A DNA stretch of 58,458 nt from a virus (Duplodnaviria; Heunggongvirae; Uroviricota; Caudoviricetes), in the IMG/VR virus record IMGVR_UViG_2724679172_000006. One strand, written 5' to 3'. Both the position numbers and the translations under genes were made by a program. Every line of letters starts with the position of its first letter. Position 1 is the stretch's first letter. Positions 21,462 through 21,569 of the stretch are shown in pieces. Below the pieces are notes generated by a model that made no database searches, was not told where the DNA came from, and saw only the letters and a list, made by a program, of their open reading frames with translations.

Positions 21462-21569
21462 TTACTGTTTCCTGAGTGCTTCTATGACGCCAGCAATACC
21501 GCCTACAACTATGCCAGCAATGACAACGAGAACAATTGGATGCTTGTCAGCAAAATCCCAGAAGCCCAT
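21462..21569 (-). CDS. small hydrophobic peptide, 35 aa (MGFWDFADKHPIVLVVIAGIVVGGIAGVIEALRKQ)
   Basis: AAGGA 6 nt upstream of ATG; single transmembrane helix; ends 4 nt before the tRNA. Confidence 0.3.
   Translation of the reverse strand: MGFWDFADKHPIVLVVIAGIVVGGIAGVIEALRKQ

Follow-up and report, generated by a model that had tools for sequence, protein, structure and literature searches.

A 35-codon ORF between tciB and tRNA-Ile2 in a P1-type phage-plasmid

We examined a small minus-strand open reading frame (ORF) in a window of 58,458 nt, which is the whole stretch of viral DNA that was analysed (IMG/VR record IMGVR_UViG_2724679172_000006). The window is a P1-type phage-plasmid, and its 1 kb from 21300 to 22300 is 100% identical to the phage-plasmid JL22 and 99.7% identical to bacteriophage P1. 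The ORF is part of a minus-strand gene series with the following features, given from the promoter region downstream.

23907..23934, minus strand: divalent C1 operator Oban (former Op72) with the ban promoters; two overlapping consensus matches with 0 and 2 mismatches; P1 and P7 records
23744-23725, minus strand: terminator-like hairpin at the end of the dicF-like region of the P1 record
22192..22311, minus strand: STnc100-like RNA element with the hairpin ACCGGGAGGCACCCGGCACCGCAA; Rfam RF02076 at 34.4 bits, E=8e-6, below the gathering score of 47
21733..22158, minus strand: tciA, 141-aa TerB-like protein, its TGA overlapping the tciB ATG; Pfam TerB at 28.4 bits (cut-off 24.4 bits), PHROG 632 at E=7e-62, P1 TciA
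21569..21733, minus strand: tciB, 54-aa DUF3927 membrane protein, its TGA overlapping the tciC ATG (TGATG); Pfam DUF3927 at E=7e-31, PHROG 1470, P1 TciB
21576..21580, minus strand: Shine-Dalgarno-like AAGGA, six bases 5' of the tciC ATG and within the 3' end of tciB; read off the sequence
21462..21569, minus strand: tciC coding sequence, 35 codons plus TAA, predicted single-pass membrane micro-protein MGFWDFADKHPIVLVVIAGIVVGGIAGVIEALRKQ; ORF reading, P1 TciC identity, PHROG and AlphaFold2
21459..21467, minus strand: conserved 9-nt tRNA 5' leader CAGTAATCC, in which P1-type tciC has its final sense codon (CAG) and its stop (TAA)
21383..21458, minus strand: trnI, tRNA-Ile2 with anticodon CAT, starting 3 nt past the tciC stop; ARAGORN, Rfam tRNA at 64.7 bits

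As a sequence-only reading of this DNA had described, a 35-codon ORF preceded by AAGGA is present on the minus strand, running from an ATG at 21569-21567 to a TAA at 21464-21462. Two details of that reading had to be corrected: it left 4 nt between the stop codon and the tRNA, whereas the gap is 3 nt (TCC) and the tRNA spans 21458-21383, and it took the TerB-like gene to be the direct upstream neighbour, but the 54-aa DUF3927 gene tciB (21733-21569) intervenes. Both the tciA/tciB and the tciB/tciC junction have the form TGATG, in which the stop and start codons share the A. Starting instead at the in-frame GTG at 21572 would lengthen the product by one residue, but this codon is just 3 nt from the AAGGA, and the ATG is therefore the likelier tciC start. 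The GAAGGA sequence is retained in SJ46 although the surrounding patch is divergent.

Following Oban on the minus strand are the hairpin at 23744-23725, tRNA-Asn, tRNA-Thr, the STnc100-like element, tciA, tciB, tciC, trnI and ban, in this order. The trnI gene is labelled Met(CAT) by ARAGORN and tRNA-Ile or tRNA-Ile2 in the P1 record and RefSeq, and the P1 record gives it 89% identity to ileX.

The ORF is the tciC gene of bacteriophage P1

The encoded peptide is 100% identical to P1 TciC (AAQ14046.1) and P7 Upf69.6 (AAQ07541.1), and it matches PHROG 23152, which carries no assigned function, over 35 of 35 positions (E=3.4e-27). The exact peptide is recorded on at least 1000 contigs, and its UniRef name is TciC. 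The gene order tciB (DUF3927)-tciC-trnI in the C1-controlled ban operon is the same in the P1, P7, SJ46 and JL22 records, and we found no difference from P1 TciC, P7 Upf69.6 or PHROG 23152 in sequence, location, overlapping start or the 3-nt gap to the tRNA. The ORF is tciC, a gene already annotated in the P1 GenBank record AF234172, and its detection here is a rediscovery of a known gene; the comparison with the tci genes of P1 that had been suggested from the sequence was the right lead, and the ORF proved to be tciC itself. The P1 record labels TciC a possible accessory protein. The published name, tci, implies tellurite or colicin resistance or cell-division inhibition, the basis for which is the adjacent TerB-like gene only.

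Distant homologues establish tciC as a genuine coding gene

A 35-codon ORF alone is not beyond chance in this region, because 62 ORFs of at least 20 aa were listed in 3.5 kb. The closest pair of alleles, those of P1 and SJ46, differ at 13 nt (9 replacement and 4 silent differences, all conservative; omega about 0.64), and by itself this pair gives no clear coding signature. When P1 TciC was compared by phmmer with 1.84 billion representative proteins, just one other cluster, the SJ46 allele, was recovered, the distant relatives not being visible from the P1 form. Judged from P1 alone, the reality of the gene is undecidable, and it is the distant relatives, identified by sequence comparison, that settle the matter.

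The homologue in phage-plasmid D6 is an ORF, MMDFWTYIDKNPGWSLLFLLVIVYGVEQVAKNLRRRK, located exactly between D6 tciB and the same tRNA and overlapping the tciB stop codon. Searching by tblastn with the D6 peptide, we identified forms of 43 aa in some 87 plasmids from E. coli and Salmonella, these plasmids being about 90 kb in size, along with further forms in Enterobacter (42 aa), Leclercia (39 aa) and Pantoea (42 aa). When a hidden Markov model (HMM) was built with the Leclercia and Pantoea sequences left out, these two reached 43.9 and 35.7 bits, against 9 for the best of 1000 shuffles. The frame is intact, with zero frameshifts, in the eight aligned members, and it is kept in five diverged lineages; pairwise divergence among the eight at codon positions 1, 2 and 3 is 0.44, 0.34 and 0.64, respectively. 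Nei-Gojobori estimates are pS 0.75 and pN 0.22 for D6 compared with pF801-4, and pS 0.7-0.97 and pN 0.36-0.53 for distant pairs. This combination of silent sites near saturation and constrained replacement sites indicates purifying selection on a genuine coding gene, and the ORF is lifted above chance because its frame is conserved across lineages. The frame is conserved as protein in relatives, which answers the concern, voiced together with the initial prediction, that it might have no counterpart in relatives or be part of the tRNA leader only. A structured RNA leader was considered separately and rejected: folding of the region is no better than that of shuffled sequences (z = +0.37), with no unusual structure.

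Profile and sequence searches of Pfam, NCBIfam, PADLOC and PDB with the peptide family gave no meaningful match. Searching genome contigs with TciB returned zero matches, and a degenerate DNA pattern applied to genome contigs returned one Escherichia contig and seven apparent chance matches. A 35-aa ORF with the same N-terminal motif in a phage contig of 28% G+C (L108) was set aside, as the pattern used had forced the motif and the hit is not independent evidence. We also came across a natural TciB-TciC fusion on one contig (P0003) and an 8-residue internal duplication (P0052), both of which were judged uninformative and potentially errors of assembly.

A predicted single-pass membrane protein with a conserved N-terminal motif

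Common to all members of the family are the sequence MxFWxFxDKxP, one hydrophobic stretch, an ALR boundary and a basic end, with M1, P11 and R33 invariant. In the P1 form, a brief N-terminal helix with the sequence FWDFADK is followed by a proline hinge at P11 and then by a single hydrophobic helix spanning residues 12-29. These residues also form the best 18-residue hydrophobic window of TciC, with a mean Kyte-Doolittle value of 2.97, and all eight members agree in their hydrophobic window and flank charges. AlphaFold2, provided with a 13-sequence alignment, predicts helices at 3-9 and 11-34 with a break at H10/P11 (pLDDT 91). The hydrophobic window and the predicted 11-34 helix both support the initial description of the product as a single-helix membrane peptide. 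Net charge is -1 for the N-terminal flank in every member; for the C-terminal flank it is +1 in the peptides of P1 and SJ46 and reaches +5 to +6 in the remaining members. An N-out/C-in topology is predicted solely from the positive-inside rule, the charge bias being weak in the P1 form (-1/+1).

Between P1-type and D6-type peptides, the transmembrane segment shows little conservation, with only G24 nearly invariant. One face of the helix carries G19, G23 and G27 in P1 and A/G/S in SJ46, and none of this pattern is found in the D6-type, Enterobacter, Leclercia and Pantoea homologues. From these alignments, the best-conserved part of the protein is the short motif predicted to face outside, not the membrane helix.

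The D6-type peptides (e.g., WP_254893275.1, 43 aa) resemble P1 TciC in sharing MxFWxFxDKxP, one transmembrane helix and the ALR boundary, as well as in their location directly upstream of the same tRNA-Ile2. They differ in length (36-43 aa) and in having a strongly basic KKRKRN tail, which is lost from the P1 form, where the coding sequence is 27 nt shorter in frame; in a different transmembrane sequence lacking the glycine face; and in genomic context, many being found without tciAB and some after an SPFH lipoprotein gene.

AcrZ, MgrB, MgtS and KdpF are small single-pass inner-membrane regulators of enterobacteria. Like TciC, they are about 30-50 aa long with one helix, and by analogy TciC might act by binding a larger membrane protein; unlike them, TciC is phage-borne and C1-repressed, and there is no sequence relationship.

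The tciC stop codon lies inside a conserved tRNA leader

The sequence CAGTAATCY precedes the tRNA with or without tciC, and is present in RCS47-type phages lacking tciC. P1 tciC ends ...AGG AAA CAG TAA TCC, with the last codon and the stop inside this leader. The 43-aa E. coli forms end ...AAT TAA, followed by CAGTAATCT, and the leader lies past their stop. In every member from E. coli, Salmonella and Enterobacter, 3, 9 or 4 nt lie between the stop codon and the tRNA, and the Leclercia and Pantoea homologues are not adjacent to this tRNA.

In the same slot, the P1-like phages RCS47, Ro157c2YLVW and 813R1, which have no tciABC, carry genes for a 78-aa two-helix protein and an SPFH/Band-7 lipoprotein. 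Beside the tRNA, all three retain a remnant, AAGCGTAAGCAAAATTGGCAGTAATCC, equivalent to the last about 25 bases of the 43-aa gene. The presence of this remnant in P1-like phages devoid of tciABC therefore points to a 43-aa gene next to the tRNA as the probable older state of the locus.

A connection between AUA codons in tciC and the downstream AUA-reading tRNA was considered as well and dropped, given that AUA accounts for 2/35 tciC codons, too few to be informative, and that ATA already makes up 21% of the Ile codons in the window's long ORFs.

TciC is separable from the TerB-like and DUF3927 proteins

The TerB-like and DUF3927 genes occur as a pair, with no TciC-like ORF after them, in the N4-like phages Pollock and FSL SP-058, the SSU5-like phage Cyrano and the lambdoid phages Evi and Fostie; in Fostie, the pair sits between the genes for a Q-like antiterminator and a holin. 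Judging from this distribution, the pair is a mobile two-gene cassette common to very different phages. Conversely, TciC-like genes are found with nothing upstream (pF801-4, pF374-2), after the gene for an SPFH lipoprotein (p2_035123) or an 88-aa membrane protein (Enterobacter), and before the gene for a lipoprotein (Leclercia) or for a 75-aa membrane protein plus SPFH (Pantoea). In IMG/VR, scanning for the motif matched 92 contigs, among them 21 D6-like family-member contigs without an upstream tciB; the P1- and SJ46-type copies for which upstream sequence is present all have tciB upstream and the 3-nt gap to the tRNA. Co-occurrence of tciA, tciB and tciC is not obligate, the pair without TciC and TciC without the pair both being found.

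The alleles of these genes are also differently distributed. P1 and P7 TciA are 31% identical, and TciC is identical in both phages; P7 and D6 TciA are 99% identical, and their TciC peptides share about a third of residues; SJ46 matches P1 in tciA and most of tciB and differs across the end of tciB and the whole of tciC. On these comparisons, TciA and TciC alleles reassort freely. In favour of co-operation is the stop/start coupling of tciB and tciC, which is retained in P1, P7, SJ46 and D6. The notion that the peptide may form a membrane-stress or exclusion pair with the TerB-like protein holds only in part: tciA, tciB and tciC are stop/start-coupled in P1, but TciAB and TciC each occur alone and their alleles reassort. 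The three genes are not one evolutionary unit, and tciC should be tested separately from tciAB.

Ter clusters have been connected with resistance to tellurite and colicins and with the inhibition of phages (PMC9603915). The point that the tci locus shares with these clusters (terZABCDEF; IncHI2 plasmids and prophage-like elements) is the TerB domain in the neighbouring TciA; unlike them, it has no terC, terD, terZ or terE, and TciC belongs to no Ter family. Pfam and NCBIfam gave no match to the TerB, TerC or TerD/Z/E domains in TciC, the TerB match being confined to TciA. No other ter genes were found at the locus, which comprises tciA, tciB, tciC, the tRNAs and ban, with plp/upl on the opposite strand, and PADLOC profiles gave zero matches to TciA, TciB or TciC at E<=0.1.

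tciC in the ban operon

Oban and the ban promoters are the only annotated promoter region able to drive the tRNAs, tciABC, trnI and ban. No sigma-70-like promoter was detected between 20900 and 24200 by a simple consensus scan, a crude method that may have missed a lysogen-active internal promoter, and no minus-strand terminator-like site was detected by scanning between the hairpin at 23744-23725 and ban. In this arrangement, tciC lies in an operon with the C1-repressed ban promoters at its head. The STnc100-like element marks the 5' edge of the variable cassette that contains tciABC, and its hairpin core also precedes SJ46 tciA, the lone pF801-4 tciC-like gene, and the SPFH cassette that RCS47 and 813R1 carry.

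In a CRISPRi screen of P1, the relative plating efficiency for tciC was 1.3 and the gene was scored NE, with tciA, tciB, trnI and ban likewise non-essential (PMC10695390). tciC is dispensable for plaque formation. One preprint describes tciB/C as under-induced in an hfq mutant. In the searchable literature, outside of which the P1 genome paper falls, we found no reports on TciC expression, localisation or phenotype; neither were any experiments on tellurite resistance, colicin resistance or phage inhibition by the tci genes found in the searchable literature.

Possible roles of TciC

Several accounts of TciC can be weighed against these observations. The idea behind both the GenBank note and the sequence-only reading is that TciC is a dedicated accessory subunit of a TciA-TciB-TciC membrane complex, in which TciB and TciC would provide a three-helix anchor for a cytoplasmic TciA, serving tellurite or colicin resistance or phage exclusion. 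The TGATG at both junctions favours equimolar co-translation, the tciB-tciC coupling is kept in P1, P7, SJ46 and D6, all P1- and SJ46-type tciC copies seen in plasmids and IMG/VR have tciB directly upstream, and the P1 record applies its accessory-protein label. We nevertheless consider this account unlikely: a TerB-like plus DUF3927 unit exists without TciC in four other phage groups, TciC-like genes persist under purifying selection without tciAB, and the TciA and TciC alleles reassort freely, at a locus without other ter genes and with no PADLOC match for any of the three proteins. A holin-like or type I toxin-like role is a poor prospect as well. In that case TciC would be a toxic peptide that forms pores or depolarises the membrane; produced once the ban operon is derepressed, it would bring down the membrane potential and so keep out superinfecting phages or adjust the timing of lysis. 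TciC is indeed a very small hydrophobic single-helix peptide, with a G19xxxG23xxxG27 face able to mediate helix-helix packing, and C1 repression of the operon would keep it absent from healthy lysogens. However, the glycine face is missing from the D6-type, Enterobacter, Leclercia and Pantoea homologues, and conservation is concentrated in the short periplasmic motif and not in the helix; furthermore, Pfam, NCBIfam, PHROGs and PADLOC yielded no toxin or holin family match, Rfam found only the tRNA in the stretch and no antisense RNA family over tciC, and the P1 lysis genes are located elsewhere. These points make a toxin very unlikely.

Hardly credible, in our estimation, is the proposal that the peptide is irrelevant, whether because the ORF arose by chance in the tRNA-Ile2 5' leader or because translation as such, and not its product, counts, for instance through control of tRNA folding and RNase P processing or of ban expression. 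Its amino-acid sequence is constrained with silent sites saturated, conservation of the N-terminal motif, P11 and R33 extends across genera, and the Leclercia and Pantoea homologues are away from the tRNA; moreover, RCS47-type phages keep the tRNA and leader without the ORF, and the region gives no RNA structure signal. What speaks for the proposal is the geometry of the junction, where the tciC stop codon lies inside the conserved leader, the short gap of 3-9 nt is kept in most relatives, and a terminating ribosome would, from the size of its footprint, cover the first bases of the tRNA.

We consider it reasonably probable that TciC, the product of a genuine coding gene, is an autonomous small membrane protein at the tRNA-Ile2 locus of the P1/D6 lineage, and not a Ter-like subunit. 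Such a protein would be inserted in the inner membrane in the N-out/C-in orientation and would be produced in the absence of C1 repression, namely at an early stage of infection or induction. Through the conserved motif on its periplasmic face and a small-xxx-small helix face, it would pack against itself or against a membrane partner supplied by the host or the phage. The tRNA-Ile2 locus, for its part, may be a site where alternative membrane-directed cargo has been inserted beside a resident tciC, the alternatives being TerB plus DUF3927 or the 78-aa membrane protein plus the SPFH lipoprotein. Cutting by RNase P at the tRNA 5' end would trim the tciABC message to a tail of 3 nt, and tciABC expression should therefore be short-lived. 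The exact tciB/tciC stop/start overlap in P1, SJ46 and D6 is equally expected of a three-protein complex.

A more specific proposal, which we put forward tentatively as possible but on the whole doubtful, is that the TciC-like peptides constitute an autonomous, lineage-specific family anchored to tRNA-Ile2 with its own membrane function, independent of the TerB-like module. A candidate function would be blocking the DNA entry of superinfecting phages via the periplasmic motif. With its stop codon 3-9 nt away from where RNase P cuts, the gene may also tie the end of translation to maturation of the tRNA and to breakdown of the message upstream.

tciC is systematically missing from genome annotations

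P1 is a mainstay of bacterial genetics; phage-plasmids of its kind are common and spread resistance genes. The present analysis adds some modest new points to what is known of their tci genes, namely, the wider TciC family, its separability from tciAB and a systematic annotation gap. Among RefSeq E. coli genomes, 285/5426 (about 5% of complete genomes) contain the stretch at >=80% coverage, and the features annotated under the match are a TerB-family protein, a DUF3927 protein and tRNA-Ile, but never tciC. The conserved micro-protein has been left out of hundreds of records by the standard RefSeq pipeline, and PLSDB plasmid records are likewise without a tciC annotation. The expectation that such a peptide would be missed by ORF callers was thus borne out in the RefSeq E. 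coli, PLSDB and D6 annotations, the D6 record leaving its own tciC homologue unannotated. A paper on D6-like plasmids names tciA and tciB only.

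Putative swappable cargo upstream of tRNA-Ile2

The position occupied by tciABC carries different genes in related elements. In the P1-like phages RCS47, Ro157c2YLVW and 813R1 (L015-L017), which lack tciABC, this slot holds genes for a 78-aa two-helix membrane protein and an SPFH/Band-7 lipoprotein, and about 25 nt from the terminal 3' part of tciC, in its 43-aa form, survive 5' of the tRNA. One D6-like plasmid (L014, 660-1632) carries an SPFH gene followed by an intact tciC-like gene.

Features of the slot and its 5' flank
L015-L017, about 1483-1509: tciC remnant (3' end, 43-aa form)
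Window 22192-22311, minus strand: STnc100-like RNA element (Rfam, sub-threshold), core hairpin at 22191-22214

Directly 5' of tciA, the window matches the Rfam sRNA family STnc100 at 34.4 bits (E=8e-6), short of the gathering score of 47. The core of this element, CCGGGAGGCACCCGGCACCG, recurs 5' of tciA in SJ46, 5' of the lone tciC-like gene in plasmid pF801-4, and, in RCS47 and 813R1, 5' of the SPFH cassette; a more complete STnc100-like copy is present in the lambdoid phage Evi, 3' of tciAB. The STnc100-like element appears to be conserved as a boundary or leader of swappable cargo cassettes.

TciC homologue in D6 and TciC-like proteins elsewhere

Phage D6 encodes an unannotated tciC homologue, flanked by tciB and the tRNA(CAT) gene and overlapping the stop codon of D6 tciB. 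Both the published D6 annotation and a paper on D6-like plasmids list tciA and tciB alone, and the tciC homologue is absent from them. On the other side of tRNA-Ile2, D6 and the D6-like plasmids (L005, L009, L010, L014) carry a gene with a Tad2-like (Thoeris anti-defence 2) domain rather than ban.

Genes in the compared loci
L005 (phage D6, NC_050154), 1662-1775, plus strand: tciC homologue, 36/37 aa
L009 (D6 group), 2171-2746, plus strand: 191-aa protein with Tad2-like domain (Pfam PF11195, E=1.5e-9)
L108 (IMG/VR contig, 28% G+C), 5944-6051, plus strand: 35-aa ORF MNFWNFADKHPVALVFIVYFICYFLYSIAYLLYSC; strong AAGGAG site

The ORF on the low-G+C phage contig L108 shares with TciC its length and N-terminal motif, but it was retrieved with a pattern that imposes this motif, so that its homology to TciC is unproven. 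Two further proteins depart from the usual form: P0003, a 90-aa TciB-TciC fusion from a single contig, and P0052, a 43-aa TciC in which GIVVGGIA is duplicated internally. Either natural variation or misassembly could account for them.

Comparison with P1 and control of the ban operon

Relative to P1 c1.100 (AF234172), the window carries insertions of 196 nt (22814-23009) and 12 nt (23370-23381), both in the stretch that separates tciA from the tRNA pair, where plp/upl lie on the opposite strand; outside them, 21300-24000 shows 10 mismatches in 2491 aligned bases. The immI region has the pattern expected of a P1-type phage, with a C4 antisense RNA beside an isrK-like RNA.

Regulatory features of the window
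23725-23744, minus strand: strong terminator-like hairpin, T8 run
23907-23934: C1-controlled ban operator pair
46164-46251, minus strand: C4 antisense RNA (Rfam, 76.7 bits)
46296-46374, minus strand: isrK-like RNA (Rfam, 58.3 bits)

The T8 hairpin, which matches no Rfam family at gathering score, is found at the end of the region named dicF-like in the P1 record, about 170 nt downstream of the ban operator pair. The tRNAs, tciABC and ban lie beyond this hairpin, and transcription would have to read through it to cover them. Across the window, the C1 operator consensus ATTGCTCTAATAAATTT has seven more 17-nt matches with at most 3 mismatches (8082, 10174, 10223, 13847, 27440, 44387 and 46444; 0.33 expected from shuffles), and these putative sites agree with the dispersed arrangement of C1 operators in P1.
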